Assembly (NCBI GenBank): GCA_964554185.1 | Contig: CAZKNJ010000009.1 | Span: 5-64,004, forward strand | Source: an uncultured Planctomycetales bacterium | GTDB lineage: Bacteria; 4484-113 | DNA: 64,000 bases | Reading direction: 5' to 3' | Shown: positions 2,719-33,127 of the stretch, in pieces | Layout: every line of letters begins with the position of its first letter | How positions within the stretch are numbered: position 1 is the first letter of the stretch | Translations under genes and position numbers: made by a program | The notes under the pieces: generated by a model | Seen by the model: the letters and a program-made list of their open reading frames with translations, nothing else | The model's database searches: none | What the model was told of the DNA's origin: nothing

Positions 2719-5700
2719 TCAGAAGCGGAAACTGACGCCCACATTGGCCACCCACTCTTCCTGCACCTGGCCGCGCTGGCGCCATAGAATTTCACCAAAC
2801 GCCCGCCCTCCGTAACGCTCGTAAAGGTAGTACTTAGCGCCGTATTCCTCGCGCTGGTCTACTTCGGATAGGAAGGTTCGCAAGTAGTTAACGGTGAAGC
2901 CGGGGAAGAGCTCCTTCTCCACGTTCAGCAGGAACGGAGTGCCGGATTTGCCCGTTAGGTCGCTTGACAGGGCACGGAGCTCGAAACGCTTGAAGTCCAG
3001 GCTTTCTTCCAGAAAGCGCGAGAGGCGGGAGCCGGTGAAAGCCAGTGCCTCGCTGCCGATGAAGGTCTGCATCCCGCTGCGCGTCAGATCAAGGCCGGAG
3101 CCGCCGAGCAGGTAGGCGAGGAGGGTCTCGCGCGCGAGCGGCGGGTGGGAGTACATATCTATTTCGTCGAGGTTCTGCTCATCCATCAGCGCCTGCAACG
3201 GCATGTCGTGAAAGCGGAAGTAGATGGTCAGGTCTTCGCCGGTGGGCGCGAAAGGAAGCTCGCTGGGGAGAATCTCCACCGGCATATCGCCGCGCGAAGA
3301 TCGCAGCACACCCGGCAGCTCCACCGCGGCAGTGCCGAACAGGTGCGGTGAGAGGCCGTACTCGGGCTGCATTATTATCTTCGCGGGCTCATCAACCTCG
3401 GTCAGGCGCACGATGCGGTTGAGCACGAGCAGCGAGCCGCGCGTCACATCCAACCGCCCGGAAACCTGCGGCTGCTGCAGCGTTCCGGTGATGTGCACCG
3501 CCTCGGGGCTGTGGAGGGCGACTTCCATCATCAGCGGCCGGTACTTGATCCAGCATTCCTGGCGCACAGATAGCCTGAGGTCAACGTAGGCGTTGAGCGG
3601 GCCGGTTACCGGCGCGGCCGAGGCCAGGGTCGGCAGTTGCACCACAGCGCCGGAACGAACCGCGATATCGCCGGAGATAACGATCGGCTGCTCGCGGAAC
3701 TCCTTGTTGACCGAGACTGTGCCGTCCAGGCCACCCTTGAACAGACCCCTGATCTCCAGTAACTCCAGGCCGGTGAGATCAAGTTCCAGGCCCATTGCTT
3801 CTATCCCGCGAAAGCCGGGGGCAAACTGCACGCGCGAGATGTCCATCCGCGCGAGGTTGTTGCCGCCCTTTCCGTTGGTAGGACGGAGCACTGCGCCCTT
3901 GCCGGTGATAGTGCGCCCGTCAAAGTCAATGTCAGCGCTCAGACTCGCCAACGCAACCATGTCGCGGTAGCCGAGCCCGGACAAGTCGAGCTTGGCATTG
4001 CCGTAGACGAGCGGATCGGACAGCGTGCCTGCGACATCGAGTTCGCAGGTCAGTTTCCCCGCATACTTGACATCTTCCAAAGGGAACAGCGGCTGGGCGC
4101 CTCCCAGGGCGAAATCCTGCGCGCTGACATGCAGGTCAAACGCGTCACTCAGCCCCGGCACCGGCATTACGCCGTTCGCGTACAGCATGGAGCCGCTAGA
4201 GGTAATGGAGGCGTCCCGCAACTCCAGCGCCCCGGAGGCGAACCGTAACATACCGGACACGCTATCGGCCACGATGCCGCCGGCGCTGATCCCGCGCTCG
4301 TCCGCCGAATGAAACGATCCCTCCAGCGCCGGATGCCCCTGCTCATCGCTGGTGACCGCCACGATTAAGCCGATGCCGCCGGATAGCGGGCGGAAGGCCT
4401 CCGGCACCAACGGCTCGAGCATCTCGAGGTCAAGGTAGGGGATGTACAGGTCTATCATTGTGTCTTCCGGCTTCCAGCTCCAGAAACCGGAGGCGGTGGC
4501 GATGGTTTCTTCGTTGTAGGCCTGGAAGCTGTCCACGCGGATGCCGTCGGGCTGGATGTTGAAGGAAATCAGCGCCTCGTCAATGGGAGTGTTCAACACC
4601 GCCCCGTTTTCCAATGAGACCTTGCCCTGCACCACCGGCGTCTCCAGACTTCCCAGGCTCACCATCTCGCCGGTGAGGCCGCCCTTCAAGCCAAGCTTCG
4701 CCAGAGCCGGCGTGACCCGCGCCCAGGGCTCGACCGGGAAATGGTCCATCTGCAGATTCCAATCGCTGCTGCGCCCATTCGCCAATCGCCAGGAACCGTT
4801 GGTTTCCAGCGAGCCGTCGCCCAGGCGGATGCTGCCGCGCTTGACCGTGAGGCCGTTGCCGTTGTACTCCGCATCCACGATGAACTCGTGGAGTTCCTCA
4901 CCGCCGACGCTGCCGCTGGACTGGGCATAACTGCAGGCGACCACCGGAGCGGAGTACTTTCCGTGGGCGTTCACCGCCAAGAGCCCGTCGCCGGTGGCGG
5001 GCAGGCTGAGCTCGGGGTACAAGTGGTCAAGCGCACTCGCGAGCGAGAAATGGTCGTCGCCAACGCGCAGGCTGAATTCGTCTACGGCCAACCAGCCGCT
5101 AGCATTGAGCAGCTCTCCACCAATGCGGGCGTACGCTTTCTCCAGCACCATGTGTCCAGGCTCCAACGCATAGCCGGCTGACACTTCGTAGGCGGTAATC
5201 TGCCTGCCTGCCACCTCCGCTCCCACGCGATTGACAAACGCAGTGCCGTGCAAAAAAGGGTGGTGCATGCTCCCCGAAACAGTGCCGCTGGTGGTCACCG
5301 GATCGATGATTGGTAGGACGCCAAGCCACTTGTGGAGCGAGAGATCTTTGATCTCGTAGCCCAGCAACAGCTTGCTGCCGTCCACGCGCATTGAGCCCTG
5401 GGAGGAAACGGCAGCGGTAGCGTAGCGGCCGGCTAGAGCGAGCACAGCTTCCGTGCCAGCAGTTTTCGCCGCTAGTGATGCCCACAACGGCTCGTCGCCG
5501 ACAACGCCGGAAAGCGTGGCCTGCAGCGTGAAATCCTGCGGAACGCCGCCGCCGTAGGCGCGGAAGTACAAGCGCTCATCCCCGATCTCGGCCTTGCCCG
5601 ATGAACTTGCGCGAGCGCGCCAGCCGTGTTGAGTACGGGACGCCTTGAGGTCAGCAGATGCGACGACGCGGGAGGGAAGGCGCTCGCGTGGAAGAGCAAT

Positions 5701-7350
5701 GTCCGCCGGCCAGCGGGGCTGGAACACCACCTGCGGGGCCAGAATAGTGGCCGCGTCCAGGCTCAGGTCAAAGCTGACGCCAGGCGAGGAGACGGTGCCG
5801 TCGGTGAGCTCAATCAGCGCATGCTGCGTGCGCCCAACCACGCGCTTGCCGGCGACATCAACCTGTCCCTTGAGCGCAAGGTCGGCGCGCCTGATGCGGG
5901 AAATCGCGGGGTGCAGCGCTCTCAAGCTGCGGGGCAAGGCGGATGGCGCTGCTGTAATCTTAGCGGTTCCCTCCACCTTCGAGTCCGCAATGACCAGGTT
6001 GGCCGCGAGGAACTCGCGCCCGGATTGGGTTGCCGTGATGTCGGCATGCACCGTGCCGCCGGCGCGCCGCAGCCGGGCGGTCACGCCCTCGGCCAGCAGC
6101 ATTCCGTCGCGGCTGAGACCGGCAACGCTCATGTCCGCGGTAATATCGGACTTCTCCAGCTCAAAGGGCTCTCCCGCTTCCACCGTCATCTGCAAGCCTT
6201 CAGCGGAGACGCCCGCGACGCTGGTAACGAATGCCGCGATACCGGGCACGTTGAAGTTGGCGCGCAGACCTTTGCCGCCTGAGGTGTCCAGGCTGACGGC
6301 AAATGGCCCGCCGCCGGCCAGCCCGTCAACGGTCACTGCCGTTCCCCCGGAATCCATTGCACCAGCTGCCGAGCCGATCTCAATGCGCGAGGCTCCTGCC
6401 GGGAGGAGCACGATGTTGGACAGCTCCGCTGCGAACTCCTTCAGCTCGGGCTTGCCGTCGGAGGAGACGACCGCTTTCAGTTGATCAACCGTCGCTTCCG
6501 AAAGGTCCCATATCCCTTCGCCGGACGCGATGAAGGGGAGCGTATCCAGCTTCACTCCGCGCGCCGCCGCCTCCGCCCGGAAGGAAGCCTTGTCTGTCTG
6601 GCCGCTTAGCTTGAGCGAAAGGGCTACGGGGCTTTCGACTTGAACGACCCCGTCAAACGCGCGCTTCACCGGCCGCACCGTCAAATCCGCCGCGAAGGCG
6701 ACGCGAAGCGAATCTTGCAGCTCAACCAGCGGTTCGTGGAGCGCGCTGCGCAAGTCAGCGGCAAAACCCTCCGCCAGCACGACTTCGTTTGATTCAAGCC
6801 AGGCTGCGAGCTTGTTCCAGGCTGCCTCCCTAGTCTTGTTGAGCTTCTCATCAATGAGTCCGTTAATCTCATCCCTGGCCGCAGGCGCGAGCTTCAGTGT
6901 GATCGCGGAATCCCGCAGCCGGAGATTCAGTGTTTCCAGCTTGGTTTCTTTGGGCTCCGGCAAGCGCTCCAGCAAGTCGGAGAAGCTCCACTTGCCCTTC
7001 CCTTCATACTCGATGGAAGCCGAAAGTCCCTTGATGGTCACCGTGAGCGACTGCTTACCGGCGAGGTTGCGTAGCATGTCCAACCAGGAGGCGCCAATGG
7101 AAACCTCCTCCGCCGAGATGTAGTCTTCGCCTGTATCAGGATGCTGCAGGCGCGGATGAGATAGAGTGATGCTGCCGCGGTCAAGTTTGATCTCGTCAAA
7201 GGAGAGTTTACCGACGGACGTGTCGAAGCCCGTGGCGGCAAGGCGGCGCAGTAGCATCTGGCGGCCGACCGTCAGCAGCAGCACGAGCACAAGCACGATA
7301 ACAAGCGCGACCGTGCCGGCAACAGCCAGAGCTTTTCGCCATCTTCTCAC
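2719..7350 (-). CDS. tamB: TamB/AsmA-like translocation-and-assembly-module protein (DUF490 C-terminus), 1543 aa
   Basis: Single N-terminal TM anchor (LAVAGTVALVIVLVLVLLLTV). Very long beta-rich body. C-terminus ...YYLYERYGG...GVSFRF is typical of TamB/DUF490. Start is 2 nt after the mlaD stop. Confidence 0.75.
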   Translation of the reverse strand: MRRWRKALAVAGTVALVIVLVLVLLLTVGRQMLLRRLAATGFDTSVGKLSFDEIKLDRGSITLSHPRLQHPDTGEDYISAEEVSIGASWLDMLRNLAGKQSLTVTIKGLSASIEYEGKGKWSFSDLLERLPEPKETKLETLNLRLRDSAITLKLAPAARDEINGLIDEKLNKTREAAWNKLAAWLESNEVVLAEGFAADLRSALHEPLVELQDSLRVAFAADLTVRPVKRAFDGVVQVESPVALSLKLSGQTDKASFRAEAAARGVKLDTLPFIASGEGIWDLSEATVDQLKAVVSSDGKPELKEFAAELSNIVLLPAGASRIEIGSAAGAMDSGGTAVTVDGLAGGGPFAVSLDTSGGKGLRANFNVPGIAAFVTSVAGVSAEGLQMTVEAGEPFELEKSDITADMSVAGLSRDGMLLAEGVTARLRRAGGTVHADITATQSGREFLAANLVIADSKVEGTAKITAAPSALPRSLRALHPAISRIRRADLALKGQVDVAGKRVVGRTQHALIELTDGTVSSPGVSFDLSLDAATILAPQVVFQPRWPADIALPRERLPSRVVASADLKASRTQHGWRARASSSGKAEIGDERLYFRAYGGGVPQDFTLQATLSGVVGDEPLWASLAAKTAGTEAVLALAGRYATAAVSSQGSMRVDGSKLLLGYEIKDLSLHKWLGVLPIIDPVTTSGTVSGSMHHPFLHGTAFVNRVGAEVAGRQITAYEVSAGYALEPGHMVLEKAYARIGGELLNASGWLAVDEFSLRVGDDHFSLASALDHLYPELSLPATGDGLLAVNAHGKYSAPVVACSYAQSSGSVGGEELHEFIVDAEYNGNGLTVKRGSIRLGDGSLETNGSWRLANGRSSDWNLQMDHFPVEPWARVTPALAKLGLKGGLTGEMVSLGSLETPVVQGKVSLENGAVLNTPIDEALISFNIQPDGIRVDSFQAYNEETIATASGFWSWKPEDTMIDLYIPYLDLEMLEPLVPEAFRPLSGGIGLIVAVTSDEQGHPALEGSFHSADERGISAGGIVADSVSGMLRFASGALELRDASITSSGSMLYANGVMPVPGLSDAFDLHVSAQDFALGGAQPLFPLEDVKYAGKLTCELDVAGTLSDPLVYGNAKLDLSGLGYRDMVALASLSADIDFDGRTITGKGAVLRPTNGKGGNNLARMDISRVQFAPGFRGIEAMGLELDLTGLELLEIRGLFKGGLDGTVSVNKEFREQPIVISGDIAVRSGAVVQLPTLASAAPVTGPLNAYVDLRLSVRQECWIKYRPLMMEVALHSPEAVHITGTLQQPQVSGRLDVTRGSLLVLNRIVRLTEVDEPAKIIMQPEYGLSPHLFGTAAVELPGVLRSSRGDMPVEILPSELPFAPTGEDLTIYFRFHDMPLQALMDEQNLDEIDMYSHPPLARETLLAYLLGGSGLDLTRSGMQTFIGSEALAFTGSRLSRFLEESLDFKRFELRALSSDLTGKSGTPFLLNVEKELFPGFTVNYLRTFLSEVDQREEYGAKYYLYERYGGRAFGEILWRQRGQVQEEWVANVGVSFRF

Positions 7351-7351
7351 T

Positions 7352-8695
7352 TCAGAACGAGAGCTGTACCCCCGCGTTCACCTGGTTCTCATCGCCGATG
7401 TCTTCCACGCCAACGAGCATGTTGTAGCGGTCCGCTAGCGGGAAGGTCAGGTAGGAATTGAGCTTGGGGTTGTTGATGTCGTACAGGTCGCCGGTCAGCC
7501 CTAATCCCCCGCCCTGCGAGTAGTCAAAACCCAGGCCGAACTCCGAGCGGAAAATGCCGCCGCGGAACAGAAGCGAGTTACCCATGTACTTCCCGGCCTG
7601 CGCGGTGACGCCCACTTTCTCCGGCGTCTCGCTGCCGATATTCTCCACGCCGAGGTCATAGGCGCTGTCGCCCACCCGCAGGCGCGTCTTCACATCAACA
7701 TACGCATTGTCGCTGCGGTTCGTCTGGTGGACGCTTTCGTTGCGGATGTTCACTTTGCCCTTGAAGCCGATGGGGCCGATATTATCCATTTTCTCGTTTA
7801 CGCGCTCTAGCGTCCCGCGCATCGTCCGCAGTGTTTTCTCGGCCTCTTCCAGCGTGGACTTGGTCAAGGTAATGCTGTCCTTGAGGTCCTGTTTGACCTT
7901 GTCGTCGCCGCTGATGTCGCGAATGTCGCCGGAAATCTCCTTCATGTCGGCGAGCAGCACGTCAATGTCGCCGAGCAGGGAATCCATACGCGTGCCGATG
8001 TCCATCGACTCCACCGTGCCTCGCAACCCGCTGGTGAGCGCGAGCATGTCCTCGCTGAGCGCGTGCACATTGGTCATGGTGGAAGTCACCTTGCCCTCAT
8101 TCATAGCAATGAGCCGGTCGGTGCGCGTGAGCATCCTGTTGGCCACCTCAACCGTGTCGCTGAGCTGCACGGCCAAGTCGCTCATGATACCGCCCATCTT
8201 CTCTTCGCTCATGAAGCCTTCCACGACGTCCAGCAGCGTGTTGACTTTCACCAGCGCGAGGTTGGCGTTGCTTATCATATCGGTGAGGCCGGGGTCCGGC
8301 TGACCTTTGAAAACCTGGTCGGCCTGCGCGTCGCCCGCAAGCGGGTTGGGGTTGGGATTGTCGCGGATAGAAAGATACTTCTCCTCAATCAGCCCCTCGG
8401 ACATAATGTAGAACTTGGCGTCCGCCGGGAAGGTGATGCCGGGGAAGATGTTCACTTCCGCCCTCGCCACGCCCCGGTCAGGATCGAGCTTCACGCTGCT
8501 GACCCATCCGATGTCGGTGCCGGCGCGCTGGACAGAAGTGCCCTTCTTGATGCCGCGCGCGTTGTCAAACTCCACCTTCACGGAGTAGCCCGACTCGCGG
8601 TTGAGCTCCAGCACCGCGCGGTACGCGCCAACTGCCAGAATGATGCCGATGACTACAACCAGACCGACCTTGATCTGGTAAGTGATTCCCTTCAT
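7352..8695 (-). CDS. mlaD: MCE/MlaD-family protein with long C-terminal extension (447 aa)
   Basis: N-terminal TM, then an MCE domain (YSVKVEFDNARGIKKGTSVQRAGTDIGWVSSVKLDP...). About 250 extra residues are helical with heptad-like spacing and end in a Gly/aromatic-rich segment terminating ...GVQLSF. Confidence 0.75.
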   Translation of the reverse strand: MKGITYQIKVGLVVVIGIILAVGAYRAVLELNRESGYSVKVEFDNARGIKKGTSVQRAGTDIGWVSSVKLDPDRGVARAEVNIFPGITFPADAKFYIMSEGLIEEKYLSIRDNPNPNPLAGDAQADQVFKGQPDPGLTDMISNANLALVKVNTLLDVVEGFMSEEKMGGIMSDLAVQLSDTVEVANRMLTRTDRLIAMNEGKVTSTMTNVHALSEDMLALTSGLRGTVESMDIGTRMDSLLGDIDVLLADMKEISGDIRDISGDDKVKQDLKDSITLTKSTLEEAEKTLRTMRGTLERVNEKMDNIGPIGFKGKVNIRNESVHQTNRSDNAYVDVKTRLRVGDSAYDLGVENIGSETPEKVGVTAQAGKYMGNSLLFRGGIFRSEFGLGFDYSQGGGLGLTGDLYDINNPKLNSYLTFPLADRYNMLVGVEDIGDENQVNAGVQLSF

Positions 8696-9495
8696 ACCCT
8701 TCCTCCTTCAACAGCCTTGCCCGCGTCATACAGGTCGGGGTGCATTAGCCGGCGGTACATCTCCACGTGCTCCCGCCAGCTCTTGGTAAAGTGCTGAACC
8801 TCGGGCTCGTCGCTGGTAAGCAGATTGCTGGGCTTGCCCACATCCAGCGCCACGCCCTCGTGAACCAGGAACACGCGGTCGGCCACATCCAGCACGCTTT
8901 CCAGGTCGTGGGACACGAGGATTGAGGTTACCTGGAACTTCTCATTCATCTCCCGGATGATGTCGTCTACATGGCCGATCATCGTGGGGTCCAGTCCGGT
9001 AGTGGGCTCATCATAGAGCAGTATCTTGGGTTTGTATATCAGCGTCCGGCCGAGGGCAACGCGGCGCCTCATCCCACCGGACAGCTCCGACGGGTACTTG
9101 TCTTCAACCCCGGGCAAGTCCAGCAGCTCCAGCATCTCCTGCACCAGCTTCATTACCTGCCGCCAAGGCTTCTTTTCGTGGTAGTACGGGAAGAAGCCCA
9201 CATTCTCCGCGACCGTGAGCGAATCGAAGAGCGCTGAGTCCTGGAACACCAGGCCCATCTTCGTGCGGTGGCGCTCAAACTCGCTTTCAGATATGCGCGT
9301 CACGTCTTCGCCGGCGATGAAAAGCTTGCCGGCCCAGGGCTTGAGGAAGCCCATTATCACCTTGAGTGCCGTGCTCTTGCCGCTGCCGGAACCACCGACT
9401 ATGGCGGTGGTGACACGCTCCTCCGCCACCAGGCTGACGCCGTGCAGAATCTCGGTGTTGCCGTATCCCGCCCGTATGTTTTCCAGCCGCAGCAT
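8692..9495 (-). CDS. mlaF: ABC transporter ATP-binding protein, MlaF-like
   Basis: Walker A GGSGSGKST. ABC signature LSGGMRRRVALGR. Walker B ILLYDEPTTGLD. 4-nt overlaps with both neighbours. Confidence 0.85.
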   Translation of the reverse strand: MLRLENIRAGYGNTEILHGVSLVAEERVTTAIVGGSGSGKSTALKVIMGFLKPWAGKLFIAGEDVTRISESEFERHRTKMGLVFQDSALFDSLTVAENVGFFPYYHEKKPWRQVMKLVQEMLELLDLPGVEDKYPSELSGGMRRRVALGRTLIYKPKILLYDEPTTGLDPTMIGHVDDIIREMNEKFQVTSILVSHDLESVLDVADRVFLVHEGVALDVGKPSNLLTSDEPEVQHFTKSWREHVEMYRRLMHPDLYDAGKAVEGGRV

Positions 9496-9497
9496 AA

Positions 9498-10244
9498 TCA
9501 GAACAGTATCGGCAGCAGTGCAAGGTCAAGGCCGAAAATCATCACGATGCTAACCACCACGGAGTTGGTGACCTCGCGGCCCACGCCGGCCGCGCCACCT
9601 TTCACCCGGTAGCCCATGAAACAGCCAACCGTGGCCACCACCGCGCCGAATACCAAGCACTTGATCAAGCATGCGTAGAAGTCGTTCGCATCGGTGAAGG
9701 CGGTGAGGTTTGAGGTGAAACTCGCGTAGCTGATGCCAATCTTGTAGTGCGCCATGGCGTAGCCGGCGTAGAAGCCCGAGACGCCGGCGAAAGCCCCGAC
9801 GATTGGCAACATCACCAGCAGCGCGACCACTCGCGGGGCGGTAAGAAACCAGTGCGGGTCGGTGGAAAGCGCCTGCAGCGCGTCAATCTGCGAGGAAATC
9901 TTCATTGAGCCGATCTCGCTCGTGATTGCCGCGCCAGCCTTGCCAGCCATCACCACGCCCGTCAGCACCGGAATGAACTCGCGCAGCAGGCCGACCAGCA
10001 GGAAGCCGCCGGTATAGCCTTCCGCCCCGCGCTTGCCCAACTCTTCGGCGAGCAAGTAGCACATAGTCGCGCCGACAAAGGAGAGCACCAGGATCGCCAG
10101 TGGAATCGTGTTGACGCCGAGGAACTCCATCTGGCGCGCGGTTAGGCGGAGGTTGAGCTTGCCTGTAAACAAGTAGCCCAGCGTGCGCGCGAAATAGATG
10201 ATAATCGCGCCGAGGAAGTCGAAAACACTGAGAACATGCCCCAC
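9498..10244 (-). CDS. mlaE: ABC transporter permease, MlaE/YrbE family
   Basis: 248 aa, polytopic, with the typical MlaE layout. Confidence 0.8.
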   Translation of the reverse strand: MGHVLSVFDFLGAIIIYFARTLGYLFTGKLNLRLTARQMEFLGVNTIPLAILVLSFVGATMCYLLAEELGKRGAEGYTGGFLLVGLLREFIPVLTGVVMAGKAGAAITSEIGSMKISSQIDALQALSTDPHWFLTAPRVVALLVMLPIVGAFAGVSGFYAGYAMAHYKIGISYASFTSNLTAFTDANDFYACLIKCLVFGAVVATVGCFMGYRVKGGAAGVGREVTNSVVVSIVMIFGLDLALLPILF

Positions 10245-10291: not shown

Positions 10292-13200
10292 CTATAGCGG
10301 GCCGCGCTGCCAGATAATCAAACGGTCGGCACTCCCAGGGCCGCTGGCGTAGATCAGCAGTGGATAATCCGCGGACTCGTTCGGTAAAAGCACGATGGGC
10401 GCGTTGAAATGCATGTACAGCGGAACGCTTTCCGCAACCACTTCGGTGTCCCAGTCCCCCGCGGGCTGGCGCCAGCCGAAGTATACATCCGCCCAGTGGA
10501 ACGCGTTAACATCGTCCGGCGGGTCGGTCTGGCGTGAGAAGGACGCTATGGCCGGGCGCCCATCCAGCAGGGCAATGTCAACATTGTGGTAGTAATTCGC
10601 GGCTTTATCATCCGGATCAGGCAGATCCACGGGGAAAGCGTTCTCAACCGTAAACGCCGTACCGTCATAAGTGGCATATCGGATAAACGCAATTGGCGGA
10701 TTAGTGCTGGCTTTCAAGTCCAAGTAAGCCAGGTACAGCGTTTGAGAAGCAAACAGCGTAGTTAGATTGCGACCGGTGTTGCTGTCTCCCAGGTTTTCCC
10801 CCGCATCCAGCAGTTCCGTGCTCCAAGTCCCTTCCGCATATTCGGCCAGCCACAGCTCACCTTTACTAGGGAAAGTGCTGGCTTCATAATGGTCTAGCGC
10901 TTTTTCATAAAGCACCATCTGCTCTTCGCCAGAACCGAAGTCTGCGATGAGGGCTTTCAGGTGCATGGACTTCTCGGTGTCGGGATCGGGCTCCTCGAAG
11001 CTTTGCCAACTTGTAGTGTCGCCCCGTCTTGCTCTCAAATCGAGCGTCTCGTCCGGAGGGAAAGAGGTTACCAGGTCGTTGCAGGCTTGCATACGGATAT
11101 CGGTGCCGAAGGCGGTGGAGATCACCGGCTGGGTCGGCAGGGAGATGGTGGCGAGCGTGTCAATGCTCCAGGTTTCCGGCGCGGTGCGGGTAGCCGTTCG
11201 GTAGTAGTCCCAGCCGGAGAAGGAGATGACCGGCTCGCCGGAAAAGCCATGGGACAGTTCTAACTGGCGGGGAAGTCCAAAGCCCGGCGGCGGGGAGGCC
11301 AGAATGGGGCCCTCAAACAGAGTGACTGCTCCATCCCATCGCATGTAGTAGACATTGCCGGTGTGGTCGGCAGGGTGTTCGGAGCCGAGGGCGAATTCCA
11401 CGATCCCTGCGCTCTGGGCCGCGTCGAAGTAGGTGATGCTCCAAATCTCGGGCAGGTCAACGCCCACCACCAGTTCGTCCAGCACATTCCACGGGGGGGT
11501 TGCGCCGAGGTAGTTCTCATTGGCATCCATGTTGGGGTCGTCGTCCAGGCGCCGGTCGGATACACGAACTGCGAAGTAGTAGCGCTCCCCGTCCTCCAAG
11601 CCGTCTATCGTGTAGGAATGCGTGGACGCCCCGGTGTCGGCAATGTCCTTCACCTGGGGGTCGTCCCAATCAAACGCCGGAGTTGTCCCGTAGCAGATAT
11701 GGTAATACACCTTGCGCCCGTAGAAATCGTCGGTGGCGTAATCCCAGTTAACCGTGGCTTCGCCGAAGCCGGTGGAGACGCTGCGGATGCCCTCCTCGCC
11801 CACCCAAACCGGCGCGGTCATGTCCGGATTCATCTGGAGCATGGTTAGCACGGAGTTGGAGTTGGTGACGTACACTCGGTCGGCAATGAGCGCGGCGCTG
11901 GAGTGAATCGGCGCGGCCAGGTCCACCGTTTGCTTGATGGCGCCGTAGAAATCCAACACATAGAAGTTACCGTTCTGCGAGCCGGCAAACACGCGCGTGT
12001 CGGAGGCAACCGGTGAAGCATAGATCCGGCCGATGTCCGCCGTCTGCCACAGCAGCGCGCCCGTCTGCAAGTCGTATGCAGCTATCTTTCCGGAATCGAT
12101 GGGCGGCATAGTGCTGAAGCGCCCTTGCCCGACAACCACCATCTCCACGTCGCCGCGAGAAACCACCAGAGGGGAGCCTTCCACCCCGAAATCGGTCACG
12201 TAGGCAGCAACCGTTGCAAGGTCGGAGAGGCGCAGCGCATAGGCCGCGTTGTCGCCTCCCTCCACGAAGTCGGTGCCGACCAGCAATACTGCAGGGGATT
12301 CGCGCGGATAGAGGACGGGTGAGGAGGTGCTGATGGTGCCCAGGTCGGCGGGGGAACGCAGGATTTCGTCGCCGGTCTCGCGGTCAAGCTTGTGGATGTA
12401 GCCGTTGCGGCTGGCCACGTAAATGTAAACACCGTCAGTGACCGGTGCGCAGTTTATCGCGCCGGAGTTCAGGCTGACCGACCACACCTCGCTTCCGTCA
12501 ATGATGTCAAACGCGTGGACGTTCCCATCCAGGTCACCGGCGTACGCCACGCCCTCCACGACCAGCGGCGAGGACTTGACCGGCAGGCCGCTCGCGAGGC
12601 CGTACTGACCACGGCTGGTGCCGTCTTCGCGGTCAAGAATGAAGTAGGCGCCGGCTCCGCCCACGGCGAGGTAGTCGCCATAGAGCGAGATGGTGGAATC
12701 GGAAAACTGAGTCGTGACCTTCTGGGAGTAGTGGGTGGAGTCCGGGCTTATTTGGCCGAAGCAAGCAAGGTACCCGTCCTGAGAAGCGATATACACGCGG
12801 CCGTCGTCCAGCACCGGGCAAGAAGCGTTGTGCGTGCCGGTTACGCGGTACTCGCGCTGCCACTGGATGGACAGCGGCTCGCGCAGACTGCTTCCCTCCA
12901 GCCGTCCGGTATTCTGCTCGTCTTTGCGGAAGGACGGCCAGGGGAAGGGGCTGGGCGTGTAGGGCTGCGGAGTGGCGGTCAGCACCACGATGTTGGGCGG
13001 AGATTCTTCCAGATCGTCCTCGTCATAGATGCGGACAAGGAAGGCGTAGGTGGTTCCATTGGCGAGGCTCGTGACCGTGTGGCTGAAAGGCGGCAAGCCG
13101 GTGAAGGAGCTGCGATCCAGCCGAATGCTCTGTGCCGTAGCCGTGTCAACGGTCAGGCCTTCCTCGTAATACAGGGTGTAATAGATGTCGTCGCCGTCCG

Positions 13201-14416
13201 GATCGGTAGCGTCGCCGAATGTGAGCGTTACCTGCCCTTTAGCGGGAGTGGCGGAGATGAGGCCGACCGCACCCATCCAGATTGGCGGGCGGTTCTCGCC
13301 GGAGCCGGTGAGGTCGGCTTTACGGATATTGGAGAAATGCACGGCACCATAGTCGTCGGCGACCTGCGAGAAGGCGCGCACAGCGAATGCATAGGTGCCG
13401 GCCGGCATCTCGCGGCCGTAGTAGTAGTTGATGCGAGTAGGGGGCGCTATCGGCGGGTCGCCGATGTAGAAGCGCGTGCGCTTGACCGAGGGGCGCGGCT
13501 CCGAGGGGGTCTCGTTATCGTCAAAGGGCGGGACGCTGAAGAAGTCGTCTTCCGAAACTTCAGCCGCCAAAGAGGGAATCGTGAGCGCGAACACGTCGTA
13601 TCCCGTAATAGAGCGCCCGAAGTTCCGCGCCAGCGGCGTGATGTCAGCAATCTGCACTTGCCCGTTGTGGTCGCCATCCACGATTTCAGCATCCGGGTGC
13701 TCGCTGACAAGCTGCTGGAAGTGCACCGCTACCGGCGTTATATCGGCGATGTTCACTCTCCCGCTGTTGTCGTAGTCGCCGGTGGTGACTTCGGTCCAAG
13801 ATAGCCCCACCTGCTGGCTGTCAACGTCAACTTCCAGGTCGGACACGCGTTGAAGTTCGCCCTCAAAGGGCACGCTGGCGGACTTGATCGCCTGCGGGCG
13901 TTTCCCGCCGCTGGTGAAGACTACCGGCCCCAGGGACTCGCCCTGACCGAAAGCGAGTGTCAGCCTGAACTCCAGCCCCACCTCGCCGGCGGCGTCGGCC
14001 ACGCCCACCGGCAGCACGCCATCCAGGCGTCCCGGCAGCACCACGCCGATGACCTCGCTCGCGGAGTCCAGCTTCAGATCAACCAGCTGCGAATCCGCCG
14101 GAGGCCGGACGTAGAGATAGGCGGACTCGTGCGTGTCCGAGGAGAACGAGAGCTCCAGGCTGCCCTGTGTTGCGCAAAGCTCAAGGCGCGACAGCATAGC
14201 CGGAGCATCATGCAGCTCCGCGTCCAGGCACTGAACGGTGAAGCCTCCGGCGGTGAGCGAGCCAGCTTCGGCGAGCCTGGCGGCGTAGAACTGGTTCACG
14301 GTGGGCTTTACCGGCTCCGGCAGCGCTCCACCGATATGGGCGGACTTGCCGCATGCGGCTGCAAGCAGCAGCGCTGCCAGCGCAAGCAAAATGCTGCGAA
14401 ACTTATACATCATCAT
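10292..14416 (-). CDS. giant secreted lipoprotein (1374 aa) with PQQ-type beta-propeller repeats, Fn3-like modules and a dockerin-like Ca-binding repeat pair
   Basis: Lipobox LLAAAC-G. Repeated motifs of the type GxxYALD/VWxxxL (YIASQDGYLACFG, GNVHAFDIIDGSEVWSVSL, YVASRNGYIHKLD, GKIAAYDLQTGALLWQ, GNFYVLD). Two dockerin-like loops DYDNSGRVNIADITPVAVHF and DGDHNGQVQIADITPLARNF about 25 aa apart. Confidence 0.65.
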   Translation of the reverse strand: MMMYKFRSILLALAALLLAAACGKSAHIGGALPEPVKPTVNQFYAARLAEAGSLTAGGFTVQCLDAELHDAPAMLSRLELCATQGSLELSFSSDTHESAYLYVRPPADSQLVDLKLDSASEVIGVVLPGRLDGVLPVGVADAAGEVGLEFRLTLAFGQGESLGPVVFTSGGKRPQAIKSASVPFEGELQRVSDLEVDVDSQQVGLSWTEVTTGDYDNSGRVNIADITPVAVHFQQLVSEHPDAEIVDGDHNGQVQIADITPLARNFGRSITGYDVFALTIPSLAAEVSEDDFFSVPPFDDNETPSEPRPSVKRTRFYIGDPPIAPPTRINYYYGREMPAGTYAFAVRAFSQVADDYGAVHFSNIRKADLTGSGENRPPIWMGAVGLISATPAKGQVTLTFGDATDPDGDDIYYTLYYEEGLTVDTATAQSIRLDRSSFTGLPPFSHTVTSLANGTTYAFLVRIYDEDDLEESPPNIVVLTATPQPYTPSPFPWPSFRKDEQNTGRLEGSSLREPLSIQWQREYRVTGTHNASCPVLDDGRVYIASQDGYLACFGQISPDSTHYSQKVTTQFSDSTISLYGDYLAVGGAGAYFILDREDGTSRGQYGLASGLPVKSSPLVVEGVAYAGDLDGNVHAFDIIDGSEVWSVSLNSGAINCAPVTDGVYIYVASRNGYIHKLDRETGDEILRSPADLGTISTSSPVLYPRESPAVLLVGTDFVEGGDNAAYALRLSDLATVAAYVTDFGVEGSPLVVSRGDVEMVVVGQGRFSTMPPIDSGKIAAYDLQTGALLWQTADIGRIYASPVASDTRVFAGSQNGNFYVLDFYGAIKQTVDLAAPIHSSAALIADRVYVTNSNSVLTMLQMNPDMTAPVWVGEEGIRSVSTGFGEATVNWDYATDDFYGRKVYYHICYGTTPAFDWDDPQVKDIADTGASTHSYTIDGLEDGERYYFAVRVSDRRLDDDPNMDANENYLGATPPWNVLDELVVGVDLPEIWSITYFDAAQSAGIVEFALGSEHPADHTGNVYYMRWDGAVTLFEGPILASPPPGFGLPRQLELSHGFSGEPVISFSGWDYYRTATRTAPETWSIDTLATISLPTQPVISTAFGTDIRMQACNDLVTSFPPDETLDLRARRGDTTSWQSFEEPDPDTEKSMHLKALIADFGSGEEQMVLYEKALDHYEASTFPSKGELWLAEYAEGTWSTELLDAGENLGDSNTGRNLTTLFASQTLYLAYLDLKASTNPPIAFIRYATYDGTAFTVENAFPVDLPDPDDKAANYYHNVDIALLDGRPAIASFSRQTDPPDDVNAFHWADVYFGWRQPAGDWDTEVVAESVPLYMHFNAPIVLLPNESADYPLLIYASGPGSADRLIIWQRGPL

Positions 14417-15155
14417 AGTCCGCGAGATGAACGCTGTTATCCTCCAGCCAGGCCTTCAGGCCGCTGGAGCAGAGGGCCGTCAGCTCCTGTTCTCGCTCCT
14501 CATAATACTCCGTGTGCTCCCTCGGAAGCCCGGCAGTCAGCCCGGGGTGGCACATCACTTCCATAATGCCATCCTTTCCGCGAACGGAATTGAGCAGCGA
14601 CAGCAGCTGTACTTCCCCTATGTTATTCTTCCCAAAAAAACCGGATATCAGCATTGCCGGGTGCCGAACGCCTTTCCAGTCCAGATAGGCGGACATTGCG
14701 GGCGAAAGCGTGCGCATTGCGAGCCCGCGCTCCAAAGCAATGTCAGCAGCCACATCCAGCACATTCACGAACGAATGGATGTTCTGATGGCTGTCCAGGT
14801 GCGTAATCGCGATGCCGGCATCCGCTAGCCTTCCCACCTGGGCTTCAAATTCGGCGCGGATTACACGCTCCCGCAGCAGCGGCGCACCTTCGGGGAAGTA
14901 CATCTTGGCACGGGAGAACTTGCCGCCCTCAAGGTACCGGGGGTTAAGACTGGTGAGCGGCTTGCCCTTAGTCAGGTTCAGGTGCACACCAACCGACACC
15001 TGCGACAGCGCTGCCAGGGCGGAAAGCGATTCGTCATCAACCATGTTTGCCAGCACGGTGGCGGAGCGCACGACGCCTTGCTCAATCGCCTGGATAATGC
15101 CCCGGGAGATGGTTGGGTGAGAGCCAAAGTCGTCAGCATTGAATACCAGCTTCAT
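14403..15155 (-). CDS. YdjC/ChbG-family carbohydrate deacetylase
   Basis: N-terminal NADDFG motif. Conserved HLDSHQ (the YdjC His-x-D-x-H metal site). Overlaps the lipoprotein start by 14 nt. Confidence 0.7.
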   Translation of the reverse strand: MKLVFNADDFGSHPTISRGIIQAIEQGVVRSATVLANMVDDESLSALAALSQVSVGVHLNLTKGKPLTSLNPRYLEGGKFSRAKMYFPEGAPLLRERVIRAEFEAQVGRLADAGIAITHLDSHQNIHSFVNVLDVAADIALERGLAMRTLSPAMSAYLDWKGVRHPAMLISGFFGKNNIGEVQLLSLLNSVRGKDGIMEVMCHPGLTAGLPREHTEYYEEREQELTALCSSGLKAWLEDNSVHLADYDDV

Positions 15156-17560
15156 GGCTTGCCGTTACCCCGCATCTTCTGCTCAACCAGGCGCCGCACC
15201 AGCTCGACGAACTGCCTCGCCCAGCGGGCATCGTCCACCCCCGGCTGCCGGGGCGAGAAAGCCGAATCCTCGTAAAGAGAGATGAAGCGGCGCAGGTCGC
15301 CGCCGTATTCGCCGAGGAAACCCACAACCCGGTCGAGGTATTCCTTGTGGGTGTCGCTGGGGTAACGGAGAAGCGAGGAGGCCGCGAGGGCATCAGATAG
15401 CGCGATGTACTCGCGCACCAGCTCGTTTTCGGGAACGAAGAAAGACTTCCGGCGGAAGCCGCGCCGCAGCCGCCAGACGGCAACGCCCAGCAGAATAGCG
15501 GTTCCAAGCACCAAGACTACCAGGTACCAGCGCGTTGCAAGGGCCGGGCCAACGAGATTGTAGAGGCCGACGAAGAAGCTCACAATCGTCTCGCGGGCGC
15601 CTGCCGGGTCGATGACGAACAGGTTCTCCATGAAGCCCACAGTGTTGCTTCCCATCTCGCGTATGCGGCTCAGGCTGAAGAGGTCGCTGGAAGCGGGCGT
15701 GGGGTCAAACATCACCCAGCCCAGGCCGTCGAAGTACACCTCCACCCAGGCGTGGGCGTTGCGGTCGCGGTAGACATACTTGTTGCCGATGACCGAGTAG
15801 CTGCCGGGGGCATAGCCGGTTACCACGCGGGCGGGGATATTCTGCGTACGGCAGAGCACCGCCATGGCTGACGCGAACTGCTGGCAGAAACCCGCCCGGG
15901 AGGTGAATAGCAAGTAGGAAGTGGCTTCCTGGTACTCGTTCAGCTCGGGGAACTCCAGCGTGTAGGCGAACCTATCAGTGTCCTTGAGGTAGCTGTAGAT
16001 CGCCAGCACCTTGTCGTAGGGCGTAGTGGCTCCCGCGACAACGCGGTCGGCTTCGCGGAACACCTCTTCCGGCACCGACAACACATTCACCCCGGCGCCA
16101 ACTTCACTCTGGTAGCGGGCGATTTTGGAGGCAATCGGCAGGCCGGTGTAGCGATCCACTATCACGGGAGGAGGCGCACCGAGGCTTTCCTTCATTTGCG
16201 CACGGTGCACATCCGGCGCGAGAATGGTCGCACGGTAGGTGAACCGGCCGGGGTGGCGCGGAAGCTGGGAATGGGGCACGGAGAAGTCGTCCAGCAGCGG
16301 CGGAACGTTCACCGGCTCATCATCGCGCGTGCGAATCATGGACACGCTCTCCAGCTTGACCGGCTGGTAGGAGCTGAAAAACACCGGAGGATGGTCCTTG
16401 AGCAGGGTCACTTCCTGGGTGAAGATCCTGTAGTTTAGATCGGATATTTCGTTCTGGGAATACAGGTTGTCTTTGTCAATGAGGATGTCTTTCCTCTTCA
16501 GCTCGTTCTCGGCGTAATGGCGGCTGGGGAAATCAATCACCGGCAGGGCGTAAGACGGAGTGGCTTCGTAGCGCCGCGTGCGCATGGGCACGGTGCGCAT
16601 GTTGAGTTCCGTCCGTTTCGAGCGCTTCCACGACTGGCCGGTGTACACGTCAAAGGCAGTCCCGCGGACATAGCCGTTACGGGCACTGCGGATTTCCAGC
16701 GCTGGGTCGTCGCTGAGAAACAGCGATTGCGGGCCGAAGATGGAGCTGCTGCCAGACAGGTCAAAGGTGCCGGAGAAGCCGCTGGTGGCCAGATCGCCGG
16801 CGGAGAGGTTCAGCGATTCGTCCGCGCGGCGCTGAAGGTCCTCCAGGCTCTCATCCAGCACCGCGGAGCTCGGCAGGAAGAAGGACGGGCGGTTCATGTC
16901 GGTGTAGTGCGGGACGAGCACATACACAATCACCGACACCGCGACGATGCCGACGACCATCTTAATAATGAGTCCGCCGACCGCCAAGGTGAACTGGGCC
17001 GCCTGCTCCGGCCGGAGCTTTTCGTCACGCCCGACGTGAGCGATTCCCTCTTGCAGATCAATCGTGTTGATGAAGTAGAAACTCGCGGTAGTGAAGATTA
17101 GAAACAGCGGGAAGTAGACCACAAGCAGAAGGTCGTAACTCGTGGTGGCGGAGAATAGGACGAACACCACGCCAATCAGCAGAAGCTGGCGGTGGATGGA
17201 AGTGGTGAAAGCGATGAATGCTAGCAAGCCCAGCAGCACGCCGAGCAGCATCCCCAAGTAGTTACCAATGAGGAACGGGTCGTCCGCCATCAGCCGGAAA
17301 TAGTGGATGACTGCGAGAATGCCGATTACGTCCACTGCAATGATGGTGAACCGGTGGTAGTTCTCACCGATGAAGTAGCTGTAGAAGTAGCCCGCGATGG
17401 CCACGAGCATGAGGATAAGCTTCAGGTCGGGGCGGTCAAGTCCGAGATCCAGGACCTGTAGGCCGACGATGGACGCCAGGCAGGTGCTGATGAAGAGGAG
17501 TAGGCGCTCGCGCCGTCCGCTGGCGTCAAGCTGCAATAAGAGCGAGCGCCCCAGGCTCAT
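15152..17560 (-). CDS. tgpA: transglutaminase-like protein TgpA (DUF3488 membrane domain + transglutaminase core + DUF4129-like tail)
   Basis: Multiple N-terminal TMs. Cys-His-Asp core (GFCQQFASAMAVLCR ... HAWVEVYFDGLGWVMFDPT). C-terminal TM plus a YPSDTHKEY...YEDSAFSP tail. 4-nt overlaps with the DUF58 and YdjC genes. Confidence 0.8.
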   Translation of the reverse strand: MSLGRSLLLQLDASGRRERLLLFISTCLASIVGLQVLDLGLDRPDLKLILMLVAIAGYFYSYFIGENYHRFTIIAVDVIGILAVIHYFRLMADDPFLIGNYLGMLLGVLLGLLAFIAFTTSIHRQLLLIGVVFVLFSATTSYDLLLVVYFPLFLIFTTASFYFINTIDLQEGIAHVGRDEKLRPEQAAQFTLAVGGLIIKMVVGIVAVSVIVYVLVPHYTDMNRPSFFLPSSAVLDESLEDLQRRADESLNLSAGDLATSGFSGTFDLSGSSSIFGPQSLFLSDDPALEIRSARNGYVRGTAFDVYTGQSWKRSKRTELNMRTVPMRTRRYEATPSYALPVIDFPSRHYAENELKRKDILIDKDNLYSQNEISDLNYRIFTQEVTLLKDHPPVFFSSYQPVKLESVSMIRTRDDEPVNVPPLLDDFSVPHSQLPRHPGRFTYRATILAPDVHRAQMKESLGAPPPVIVDRYTGLPIASKIARYQSEVGAGVNVLSVPEEVFREADRVVAGATTPYDKVLAIYSYLKDTDRFAYTLEFPELNEYQEATSYLLFTSRAGFCQQFASAMAVLCRTQNIPARVVTGYAPGSYSVIGNKYVYRDRNAHAWVEVYFDGLGWVMFDPTPASSDLFSLSRIREMGSNTVGFMENLFVIDPAGARETIVSFFVGLYNLVGPALATRWYLVVLVLGTAILLGVAVWRLRRGFRRKSFFVPENELVREYIALSDALAASSLLRYPSDTHKEYLDRVVGFLGEYGGDLRRFISLYEDSAFSPRQPGVDDARWARQFVELVRRLVEQKMRGNGKP

Positions 17561-18798
17561 CGCACGAATCCCACCTTCTCGACAAAGGTCTCCAGCTGCC
17601 GCGACAGGTCGTCGCCGTACGCCAGCTCAAAGATGAGGAAGTTCTGGCCGAAGCTTACCCGAGAGCGCGGAGTTCGGCGCGCCATCCCTTTGCGGAAGCT
17701 GTCCACATCAAAGGTTATCACCGAAAGCAGCCGGTAGTGCAGTCGGAGGTTTGCTAAAAACTCCGCTTCACCTCCGCCCAAGTGGGGAATGAAGACTATC
17801 AGGTCGGAGGACTCCGGAAGGTAGCGCAGGATTTCGGTGGAGTGGCCTTTCAGGTCAAGGTTCTCACCTGGCGTGATTTCTGCCAGCAACAGCGATATCT
17901 CCTGAAAGAGGCTGCTACCCATACCGGAGCAATGACGCTCGGCCGCACCGCTCAGCTCTAAAAAGGAGAAGTAGTAGTTGGAACGGCTGGTCTCCCGCGC
18001 CAGCGTGGAGATCAGCGTGATGGAGTACTCCAGCGGATTGTGCTCTTCGCTGCGCCCCACTGCTGAACGGTCGTCATTGACCAGTAGCACGCTCATCGTA
18101 GAGGCGACGTTGCGCTCAAACTGCTTGGTTATGAGCTTGCCCATGCGGGCAGTGCTGGCCCAGTGGACTTTGCGCAGCGGGTCGCCCGGCTGGTACTCGG
18201 TTACGCCCAGGAACTCGGTGGACTCCCCGCTGAACGGGACGGTCGCCAGCTCATCCTTGGGCACCATTGAGGAGCTGTTGAGGTAGTTCACGCGTGTGTC
18301 CAGCGGGCGCGGAAACACGGTAAGCGGAGTCATCACGCTCATTGCGCGCACGTGGCGGAAGAAGCCGAGTGGGTCGCCGGAGTAGAACATGAAGGGGCCA
18401 ATCTCAAACTTGCCGCGCCGGGCAGGCAGCGCCTCATACCTGACCGCTGCGCTGGAACCGGGCGCCAGGCTGAGAAGAGCGATCTCGCGGTGTTGCTCCC
18501 CCTCACGGGCGGCGGGGAAGTAGTCGTAACCCACCAGCGAGAAGCGGGCGGTGCGCAGCTTGTTGGTTATCACCAGGTCAACACCGAGGGGGAAGCCCTT
18601 CATACAGGTGGCGGGATGCTCGCGGTGGACCGAGAGCCCCCGGGTGCTGAGCAGCGACCAGAGGAAGAGCCCGGTGTTTAGCGTAACGAAGAGGACAAGG
18701 GTGTACACCAGCAGGTGGTTGCGGAAGATGAGGACAAGCAGCAGGGTGAACGCGGTAAGCGCCAGAGATATCCGCGAGAGTGGAGTTAAACGATACAA
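17557..18798 (-). CDS. DUF58-family protein (vWA-like, MoxR partner), paralog 1
   Basis: Two N-terminal TMs. Conserved DUF58 core ...GDPLRKVHWASTARMGKLITKQFE... Confidence 0.8.
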   Translation of the reverse strand: MYRLTPLSRISLALTAFTLLLVLIFRNHLLVYTLVLFVTLNTGLFLWSLLSTRGLSVHREHPATCMKGFPLGVDLVITNKLRTARFSLVGYDYFPAAREGEQHREIALLSLAPGSSAAVRYEALPARRGKFEIGPFMFYSGDPLGFFRHVRAMSVMTPLTVFPRPLDTRVNYLNSSSMVPKDELATVPFSGESTEFLGVTEYQPGDPLRKVHWASTARMGKLITKQFERNVASTMSVLLVNDDRSAVGRSEEHNPLEYSITLISTLARETSRSNYYFSFLELSGAAERHCSGMGSSLFQEISLLLAEITPGENLDLKGHSTEILRYLPESSDLIVFIPHLGGGEAEFLANLRLHYRLLSVITFDVDSFRKGMARRTPRSRVSFGQNFLIFELAYGDDLSRQLETFVEKVGFVR

Positions 18799-18818: not shown

Positions 18819-19841
18819 CTACTGCACCGGAACCGGCACTTTCTTGAGGACGCTTTCCACCACCACCGACGCTTTCACCCCCGCCAGCTGCGCGGAGGGC
18901 AACATCAGCAGCCGGTGGCTCAGCACCAGCGGCGCCATCAGCTTGACGTCGTCGGGAGTGACGTAGTCGCGCCCTTCAATCAGCGCCCAGGCCTGCGCTA
19001 CGCGCATCATGCCGAGACTGCCGCGGATGGAAGCGCCTACCAGCACATCCGGATGGCTGCGCGTCTCCGTGCTCAGCCGGACGATATACTCGCGCATTGC
19101 CGGCTTCAGAAACACCTTGCGCGCGAGCTTCTGGAATTCGGCGAGCTCGTCCAGGTCAATCACGCTGTCAATCTCGCCGATAGGATGTTCCTCGCGCTGC
19201 GCCTCCAGTATTTCCTCTTCGACCGCGGCACCTGGATAGCCGATGCCCAGGCGCACGAGGAAGCGGTCAAGCTGGGCCTCGGGCAGATCATAGGTTCCCT
19301 GGTGCTCTATGGGATTCTGGGTGGCGACCACGAAGAAGGGAACCGGCAGCGGATGCGACATGCTGCCCACCGTGACCTGGCGCTCTTCCATCGCCTCCAG
19401 CAGTGCGGACTGGGTGCGTGGGGAAGTGCGGTTTATCTCGTCGGCGAGCATTATGTTGGTGAACACCGGGCCGGGATTGAAGTCGAACTCGCCGGTCTTC
19501 TGGTTGAAGACATTGCTGCCGGTGACATCCGCCGGGAGCAGGTCGGGAGTGAACTGGATGCGCGTGAACCTGGCGCTGATGGAGCGAGCCAGTGCGCGGG
19601 CGAGCATAGTCTTGCCCACGCCCGGCACGTCCTCCAGCAGCACGTGACCGTCCGCCAGCATCGCGGCGAGCACCTGCCGGATGACCTTGTCTTTGCCGAG
19701 AATGACCCGTCCCACGTTGCCCGTTACCAGGGCAATCCGGTTGGCCGCCTGCATCGCGGCCTCCGGCGTCAGGGCCGTCCTTTCGGCGACCATCTTTTCA
19801 GTTTTGGCGTCCCTCATCAGCCGTAGTTCCGATGCGGGCAA
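18819..19841 (-). CDS. moxR: MoxR-family AAA+ ATPase
   Basis: Walker A GVGKTMLARALA. Walker B and sensor LADEINRTSPRTQSALLEAMEERQVTV. Layout is diagnostic of the MoxR/RavA subfamily. Confidence 0.9.
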   Translation of the reverse strand: MPASELRLMRDAKTEKMVAERTALTPEAAMQAANRIALVTGNVGRVILGKDKVIRQVLAAMLADGHVLLEDVPGVGKTMLARALARSISARFTRIQFTPDLLPADVTGSNVFNQKTGEFDFNPGPVFTNIMLADEINRTSPRTQSALLEAMEERQVTVGSMSHPLPVPFFVVATQNPIEHQGTYDLPEAQLDRFLVRLGIGYPGAAVEEEILEAQREEHPIGEIDSVIDLDELAEFQKLARKVFLKPAMREYIVRLSTETRSHPDVLVGASIRGSLGMMRVAQAWALIEGRDYVTPDDVKLMAPLVLSHRLLMLPSAQLAGVKASVVVESVLKKVPVPVQ

Positions 19842-20460: not shown

Positions 20461-20492
20461 AGAGCCCCGGCCTTTCGGCCGGGGCTCTTTAC
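20461..20492. terminator. bidirectional rho-independent terminator between yraN (+) and the SLH-porin gene (-)
   Basis: Perfect 12-bp stem agagccccggcc/ggccggggctct with a tttc loop. T-runs flank it on both strands. Confidence 0.7.
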
Positions 20493-33049: not shown

Positions 33050-33127
33050 ACGGCGCGGATTGTAGCACGGCGGGCTGGCGGTGGTATAATACGTGTTCGC
33101 GTTTTGAGAGCCTATAACTCACAACTT

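Follow-up and report, generated by a model that had tools for sequence, protein, structure and literature searches.

What is the role of a membrane-anchored protein that joins a PQQ-type beta-propeller, fibronectin type III (Fn3) modules and a dockerin-type calcium-binding repeat pair in one chain? The question is raised by a 64,000-nucleotide (nt) stretch of DNA (the window), deposited as an uncultured Planctomycetales bacterium (contig CAZKNJ010000009.1 of assembly GCA_964554185.1), whose minus strand, and not the plus strand, carries at 10292-14416 the 1374-amino acid (aa) open reading frame (ORF) of a giant lipoprotein. The answer that we favour, at slightly less than an even chance, is that this lipoprotein is an extracytoplasmic scaffold that serves as partner or client of the MoxR-DUF58-TgpA module: the lipoprotein gene ends a DUF58-TgpA-YdjC block in all the dockerin-bearing lineages examined, and MoxR often lies upstream of that block.

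Gene order, which is observed directly, carries this reading. On the minus strand of the window the genes run MoxR, DUF58, TgpA, YdjC, lipoprotein, MlaE, MlaF, MlaD and TamB-like (Table 1), and stop and start codons overlap at the DUF58/TgpA (17557-17560), TgpA/YdjC (15152-15155) and YdjC/lipoprotein junctions. The sole strong intrinsic-terminator-like hairpin within 20 kb (20461-20488, minus strand, 12-bp stem with 10 G-C pairs) comes after the gene of an S-layer homology (SLH) domain porin and upstream of MoxR, and marks the start of the MoxR-to-TamB run. In the translation of TgpA the Cys-His-Asp motifs are intact (GFCQQFA, NAHAWVEV and FDPT). The original prediction had placed the lipoprotein gene between ydjC and mlaE, and the domain scan found both neighbours, with MlaE (9498-10244) beginning 47 nt downstream.

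Among the loci of relatives (L001 to L011), the YdjC-lipoprotein arrangement is common to L001, L002, L003, L007, L008, L009 and L010. The longer order, (MoxR-)DUF58-TgpA-YdjC-lipoprotein, is found in the window, L007, L008, L009 and L010, while L001-L003 show the visible part of it; MoxR-DUF58-TgpA in the order of the window recurs in L007 and L009. Stops and starts overlap or abut throughout these loci, across which the giant proteins range from 99% down to roughly 20-25% identity and GyrA down to 59%. The Mla genes behave differently: they adjoin the lipoprotein gene in L002, L003, L006, L009 and probably L001, and are absent from that position in L007, L008 and L010, which nevertheless keep DUF58-TgpA-YdjC. 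Therefore the conserved unit is DUF58-TgpA-YdjC-lipoprotein, and adjacency to Mla is lineage-specific. The adjacency to mlaE in the envelope operon of the original prediction is present in the window, but as a linkage it is confined to close relatives.

The protein has full-length homologues at 99, 82, 75 and 47% identity. Its N-terminus reads MMMYKFRSILLALAALLLAAAC followed by GK, with the lipobox Cys at position 22, and most relatives keep a lipobox or near-lipobox; the earlier description of a lipobox-anchored 1374-aa protein agrees with this reading and with the ORF coordinates. Its domains, in order, are i) the lipid anchor; ii) a novel beta-sandwich; iii) an Fn3 domain with the dockerin-type module in its B-C loop; iv) a second Fn3 domain; v) an eight-bladed PQQ-type propeller; vi) a third Fn3 domain; and vii) a family-specific propeller-like repeat domain. 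From this order the protein would be a membrane-tethered, extracytoplasmic multi-domain scaffold. Its recognisable modules are all of known kinds; what is new is a dockerin within an Fn3 loop, the conserved extension of a TgpA module, and the family itself, which is rare, restricted to one clade and endowed with two domains that lack known relatives.

Table 1. Features of the lipoprotein gene, its neighbours in the window and the corresponding loci of relatives
Feature	Position (nt)	Strand	Basis or remark
Whole ORF, giant lipoprotein, 1374 aa, ATG to stop	10292..14416	minus	ORF list and translation; full-length homologues
Signal peptide and lipobox, residues 1-22, LLAAAC with Cys22	14351..14416	minus	read from translation; Cys kept in relatives
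N-terminal beta-sandwich, residues ~40-170, family-specific	13907..14299	minus	AlphaFold2 (AF2)
Fn3-like domain A, dockerin host, residues ~190-372	13301..13849	minus	splice hidden Markov model (HMM), AF2, Foldseek, short relatives
Dockerin-type pair of Ca-binding loop-helix segments, residues ~212-270, inserted in the B-C loop of Fn3-like domain A	13607..13783	minus	HMM and profile searches
Fn3 domain B, residues ~378-483	12968..13285	minus	fn3 16 bits, sub-threshold; AF2
Eight-bladed PQQ-type beta-propeller, residues ~500-865	11822..12919	minus	PF13360, PF13570, PDB matches, blade repeats
Fn3 domain C, residues ~866-965	11522..11821	minus	PF00041 above cutoff
C-terminal family-specific repeat domain, residues 966-1374	10295..11521	minus	cluster search, hhalign self-comparison
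Hyper-divergent 87-nt patch, residues 1025-1052	11258..11344	minus	strain comparison, window vs L009
MoxR AAA+ ATPase (AAA_3), first gene of the run	18819..19841	minus	Pfam
DUF58 protein	17557..18798	minus	Pfam; L008 orthologue 38% identity
TgpA-like membrane transglutaminase (TgpA_N, Transglut_core, DUF4129)	15152..17560	minus	Pfam; L008 orthologue 35% identity
YdjC-family gene, stop overlapping the lipoprotein start by 14 nt	14403..15155	minus	PF04794, 161.6 bits
MlaE-MlaF-MlaD-TamB-like genes, downstream	2719..10244	minus	Pfam
L001, L002, L003, L006, L009 (close relatives): upstream YdjC (and TgpA, DUF58, MoxR where the contig reaches); downstream MlaE where readable			
L007 (divergent long relative P0007): upstream MoxR-DUF58-TgpA-YdjC; downstream convergent unrelated genes			
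L008: upstream DUF58-TgpA-YdjC; downstream convergent unrelated genes			DUF58 38%, TgpA 35% identical
L010 (complete 2.7-Mb contig): upstream DUF58-TgpA-YdjC; downstream convergent unrelated genes			GyrA 59%

The dockerin-type module contains two loops, DYDNSGRVNIAD (residues 214-225) and DGDHNGQVQIAD (247-258), which lie 33 residues apart, carry acidic or amide ligands at positions 1, 3, 5, 9 and 12, and are each followed by ITP-x-A-x-x-F. Pfam Dockerin_1 (PF00404) gave no report on the whole lipoprotein, and the excised segment scored 15.2-16.4 bits (E 0.01-0.025; cutoff 22.9 bits) over profile positions 2-54 of 57. Across the family, Dockerin_1 was found at E<=0.01 in 9 of the 16 long members (best 3.2e-7). 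When a profile of four family sequences was run against the PDB, dockerins led the matches (2y3n_B, E=1.4e-6; 4fl4_A, 1.1e-5; next CelD and Xyn10B), and a 16-sequence profile aligned 4fl4_A, a C. thermocellum GH9 dockerin, end to end (E=1.3e-6); calmodulins ranked well below the dockerins, at E values above 0.1 with four sequences and no lower than 2.8e-4 with 16. Moreover all the close relatives and most of the 16 long members keep both loops and the helices that follow them (IADITP-x-A/G). Thus, given this conservation and the profile matches to solved dockerins, the segment reads as a genuine dockerin-type EF-hand pair that would bind Ca2+, and the retention of loops and helices in most members argues for a conserved contact. 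The duplicated loop of the original prediction is thereby borne out, through the family profiles and with the Dockerin_1 model under its cutoff.

Like type I dockerins (PF00404; 4fl4_A, 2y3n_B, 1ohz_B), the module consists of two tandem segments, each a 12-residue EF-hand-like loop (D-x-D/N-x-D/N/S-G-x-V/I-x-x-x-D) and a helix, with ~33-residue spacing and internal symmetry. On the other hand, the type I dockerins of cellulosomal enzymes are terminal, whereas this one is inserted internally in an Fn3 loop, scores under the Pfam cutoff and belongs to a protein that is no carbohydrate-active enzyme (CAZyme); the conserved T-P of the helices in this family is not typical of clostridial dockerins either.

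The module had also been taken to imply a cohesin-like partner, and this part of the original prediction was not supported: the N-terminal sandwich does not resemble a cohesin, and a scan of 38 neighbouring ORFs within the window gave no cohesin score, which leaves room for a partner encoded further away. Organisms without a cellulosome are known to have dockerin-like modules as well (Peer et al. 2009, as cited in PMC6487960), so that the presence of a dockerin by itself is no sign of a cohesin. The giant lipoprotein is a clear added case of a dockerin-type module outside cellulosomes, here nested in another domain.

Three lines of evidence agree on this nesting: i) the residues flanking the insert, VSDLEVDVDSQQVGLSWTEVTT-[insert]-ITGYDVFAL...YAFAVRAFS, can be read as Fn3 strands A, B, C and F, and the fn3 HMM aligns across the splice once the insert is deleted (E 0.02, a weak score); ii) an AF2 model of residues 23-500, built from four sequences and read for strand order only (mean pLDDT 56; dockerin below 50), has strands on either side of the insert, and in Foldseek it matched only generic triple-Fn3 arrays; iii) four shorter relatives have Fn3-like domain A without the insert. 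Together they lend moderate support to a dockerin-type module seated within the B-C loop of Fn3-like domain A. The Fn3-like modules of the original prediction were recovered, one above the Pfam cutoff (PF00041 on the whole protein, 28.9 bits against 25, best stretch 887-952) and two more below it: both N-terminal domains are sub-threshold (16.2 and 15.5 bits), with the module at ~395-475 scoring 16 bits. In AF2, Fn3 domain B has a pLDDT of 74-84 across most of its length and lower values at each end.

How might such a protein work with the module encoded ahead of it? Its gene would be translationally coupled as the last of the conserved DUF58-TgpA-YdjC block, with MoxR ahead in the window. After Sec export and lipidation, the two propellers would serve as platforms that bind ligands or proteins, with Fn3 spacers between them, and through its Ca2+-loaded dockerin-type module the lipoprotein would make a conserved contact with another protein. 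It would then be partner or client of a membrane complex of TgpA, with its extracytoplasmic Cys-His-Asp transglutaminase/peptidase core, and the vWA-like DUF58 protein, powered by MoxR; this complex may assemble, process or cross-link the lipoprotein into the envelope. The sequences themselves show the domains, the conservation of the family and the gene order; localisation, Ca2+ binding, the dockerin contact and any action of TgpA are inferences drawn from them.

The proposed role draws on the domains, the conserved gene order, the conserved dockerin loops and helices, the intact TgpA motifs and two precedents. In P. aeruginosa MoxR, DUF58 and TgpA are co-transcribed; TgpA is essential there and shows transglutaminase activity in its periplasmic domain (PMC3507681). 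That operon (PA2875-PA2873) matches the window in its three families, order, direction and tight packing, and its TgpA likewise has N-terminal membrane helices and an extracytoplasmic transglutaminase core with intact Cys-His-Asp motifs; the block described here is extended by YdjC and the giant lipoprotein, a partner not described for Pseudomonas in PMC3507681. The second precedent is the bifidobacterial PFNA cluster (pkb2-fn3-MoxR-DUF58-transglutaminase), where a large secreted FN3 protein is linked to MoxR, DUF58 and a membrane transglutaminase (PMC8430577). Unlike the window, that cluster places fn3 first, includes a Ser/Thr kinase and belongs to a monoderm host, and its FN3 protein is not described with propellers, a dockerin or a lipobox.

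MoxR ATPases and their vWA-like partners are regarded as assembly chaperones (PMC7159879), and the MoxR-vWA-beta-propeller ternary systems of Kaur et al. 2020 (PMC7159879) likewise encode a MoxR ATPase, a vWA-like co-chaperone and a beta-propeller protein together. Membership of these systems was rejected on architecture. Their vWA protein and a propeller of about four blades share one chain, while the window DUF58 has no propeller; their third component combines a propeller with TPR repeats, a membrane segment and an N-terminus that varies, while the lipoprotein has no TPR; and their MoxR P-loop is often GXXXTAKS, while that of the window MoxR is GVGKT. The window MoxR matches AAA_3 first (218 bits), with a cross-match to PF20030 bpMoxR at 42.9 bits.

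Elsewhere in the window, a second DUF58 gene (59347-60648 region) lies directly upstream of flhB/fliR and beside a gene for a 603-aa PLD-like protein, and at 39324-41355 a 430-aa ORF without a Pfam match follows a 256-aa ORF that matches DUF4129 weakly. The DUF58 gene and the DUF4129 ORF may be further fragments of MoxR/DUF58/TgpA-type modules.

Several points weigh against a partner or client role at the TgpA module. Gene order is the sole link between the lipoprotein and TgpA, MoxR is not adjacent in L008 or L010, and neither promoter nor terminator evidence joins or separates the lipoprotein and mla genes. YdjC has no signal peptide and is probably cytoplasmic, and its role in the module is left unexplained. 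The dockerin part of the AF2 model is of low confidence, all family members come from uncultured organisms, and MoxR-DUF58-TgpA modules, although widespread, have no known biochemical role. A lineage where one particular giant lipoprotein always comes after the module puts forward a candidate client or partner and, with it, a concrete hypothesis; the practical impact is limited, since every member is from an uncultured organism.

At the N-terminus, the beta-sandwich was modelled well by AF2 from 16 sequences (mean pLDDT 82.6, core above 90). Residues ~40-170 had no Pfam match and no PDB sequence match, and Foldseek against the PDB gave weak matches to cupins, vicilins and glycosidase accessory sandwiches (best E 0.02, TM 0.35), with no cohesin among them. 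At the C-terminus, residues 966-1374 had no match in Pfam or the PDB by sequence, and an exhaustive HMMER search of 1.84 billion (1.84e9) cluster representatives found only 26 proteins that match this domain, most of them 1100-1400 aa long with the match likewise C-terminal; the family is thus very rare. Self-comparison with hhalign revealed internal repeats offset by ~55-70 aa (probability 93%, E 4e-7), which suggests that the domain is probably a second propeller of 6-7 blades.

Within its first repeat lies a patch of strain divergence. Over 21 kb the window and L009 differ by 62 mismatches and 5 gaps (99.67% identity), and 32 of the 33 positions that differ in the lipoprotein gene fall within one 87-nt stretch, changing 11 residues. 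A diversity-generating retroelement was considered and is not supported, since the substitutions arise from all four bases rather than from adenine only; a short tract of recombination may have produced the patch, or an exposed loop may be under diversifying selection.

A shorter subfamily of 1090-1222 aa (P0012 of L011, P0009, P0010 and P0021) shares the propeller and the C-terminal domain and has neither the N-terminal sandwich nor the dockerin insert. Where readable (P0012 in L011, and P0009), these dockerin-less relatives have no TgpA/YdjC context, which speaks for the reading that ties the dockerin-bearing protein to TgpA. In L011 the paralogue is surrounded by secreted Peptidase_C1/PKD and S8/PKD proteases and by other large PQQ-propeller proteins.

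That setting gives some weight to the best surviving alternative, namely that the lipoprotein is a cell-surface adhesin or a cellulosome-like scaffold that recruits secreted enzymes, with the link to TgpA reflecting merely maturation or anchoring of a surface protein. The modules that it carries (Fn3, propeller, dockerin) are those typical of surface proteins, a C1/PKD protease also lies near the lipoprotein gene of L008, and the hyper-divergent patch would fit selection from outside. However, no CAZyme or cohesin genes were found nearby in the scans of window ORFs, and we regard this alternative as unlikely, though worth keeping in view; in part it is compatible with a partner or client role at TgpA.

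A bolder form of the TgpA-partner reading concerns the dockerin-type module itself. Conserved in an Fn3 loop across the candidate phylum, it may serve for docking in an envelope machine not recognised so far, where a non-cohesin partner would bind it in a Ca2+-dependent manner; conceivable partners are TgpA or DUF58, through an extracytoplasmic domain, and the lipoprotein's own N-terminal sandwich. We consider this doubtful. If true, it would provide the first identified client or partner of the widespread MoxR-DUF58-TgpA module, which is essential in Pseudomonas.

It is improbable that the lipoprotein is instead an accessory of the downstream MlaEFD/TamB lipid transport, for example an outer-membrane-side lipoprotein that replaces MlaA. 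The short gap to the MlaE start holds no strong terminator, and the adjacency recurs in close relatives; but the gap contains a promoter-like site, itself weak, and in the three loci where the Mla genes are gone, convergent unrelated genes take their place while DUF58-TgpA-YdjC remains. As for these transport genes themselves (2719-8695, minus strand), the MlaD homologue is 447 aa long with a long C-terminal extension, and its homologues match PF27164 Aq_493_lipo. A 1543-aa TamB-like protein starts 1 nt after MlaD, and MlaEFD and TamB look like one unit.

The propeller, finally, invites comparison with BamB. Pfam placed PQQ_2 (PF13360; 76.7 bits against a cutoff of 27.6) and Beta-prop_ACSF4 (PF13570; 79.6 bits) on residues ~538-858, and eight blade repeats of the form S-S-P-V...V-Y-V-G-S..G.L-Y-A-L-D are readable in residues 533-862, so the propeller is complete; the at least five PQQ-type blades seen originally become eight. 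PDB matches comprised BamB chains, which were the best natural sequence matches (E about 1e-15 to 1e-16), and designed 'Cake' propellers. Like BamB (YfgL), the protein is a lipoprotein with an eight-bladed PQQ-type propeller (TIGR03300 / PF13360). Unlike BamB, which has about 390 aa, it is 3.5 times larger with six further domains, and its conserved neighbours are TgpA, YdjC and DUF58; no BamA gene is present in the window. Orthology to BamB was rejected, as both equivalog models (TIGR03300 / NF008351) scored far under cutoff (67.5 against 285.2 bits, and 43.8 against 423 bits). 'BamB-like' therefore stands at the level of fold, with propeller and lipobox, and fails at the level of the equivalog models and the PDB matches to BamB, which span only about 90 residues. 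Although a lipoprotein with the BamB fold, a real dockerin-type module and envelope genes on both sides might suggest a factor of outer-membrane assembly whose dockerin binds a cohesin-like protein in that membrane or the periplasm, these scores, the partial alignments, the lack of a cohesin among the scanned ORFs of the window, the N-terminal domain unlike a cohesin and the frequency of PQQ_2 propellers in unrelated proteins make this very improbable. The case is a caution that domain names alone mislead ('PQQ_2 = BamB', 'dockerin = cohesin partner').

As to the host, GyrA of the window (gyrA 23357-25828) is 75% identical to that of 'Candidatus Riflebacteria bacterium RBG_13_59_9' and 69% to that of 'Planctomycetales bacterium 4484_113', and Bacillota GyrA follow at 52-54%. 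The metagenome-assembled genome of a relative (L004/L005) also bears the label 'uncultured Planctomycetales bacterium'. The NCBI label Planctomycetales probably misleads, and the lineage seems to be a candidate phylum of its own near 'Riflebacteria'/4484-113; GTDB presumably treats 4484-113 in this way. Genes for an SLH-domain porin, Mla, a TamB-like protein and flagella are present in the genome, and the organism is therefore taken to be diderm.

Two sizeable ORFs, of 364 and 430 aa (32858-33952 and 40063-41355, plus strand), had no Pfam match at E<=1e-4. At 46333-49038 (minus strand), an unusually large protein of 901 aa with flagellin N- and C-terminal helical regions adjoins FlgK; it is probably either FlgL or a giant flagellin whose centre holds a long insert.

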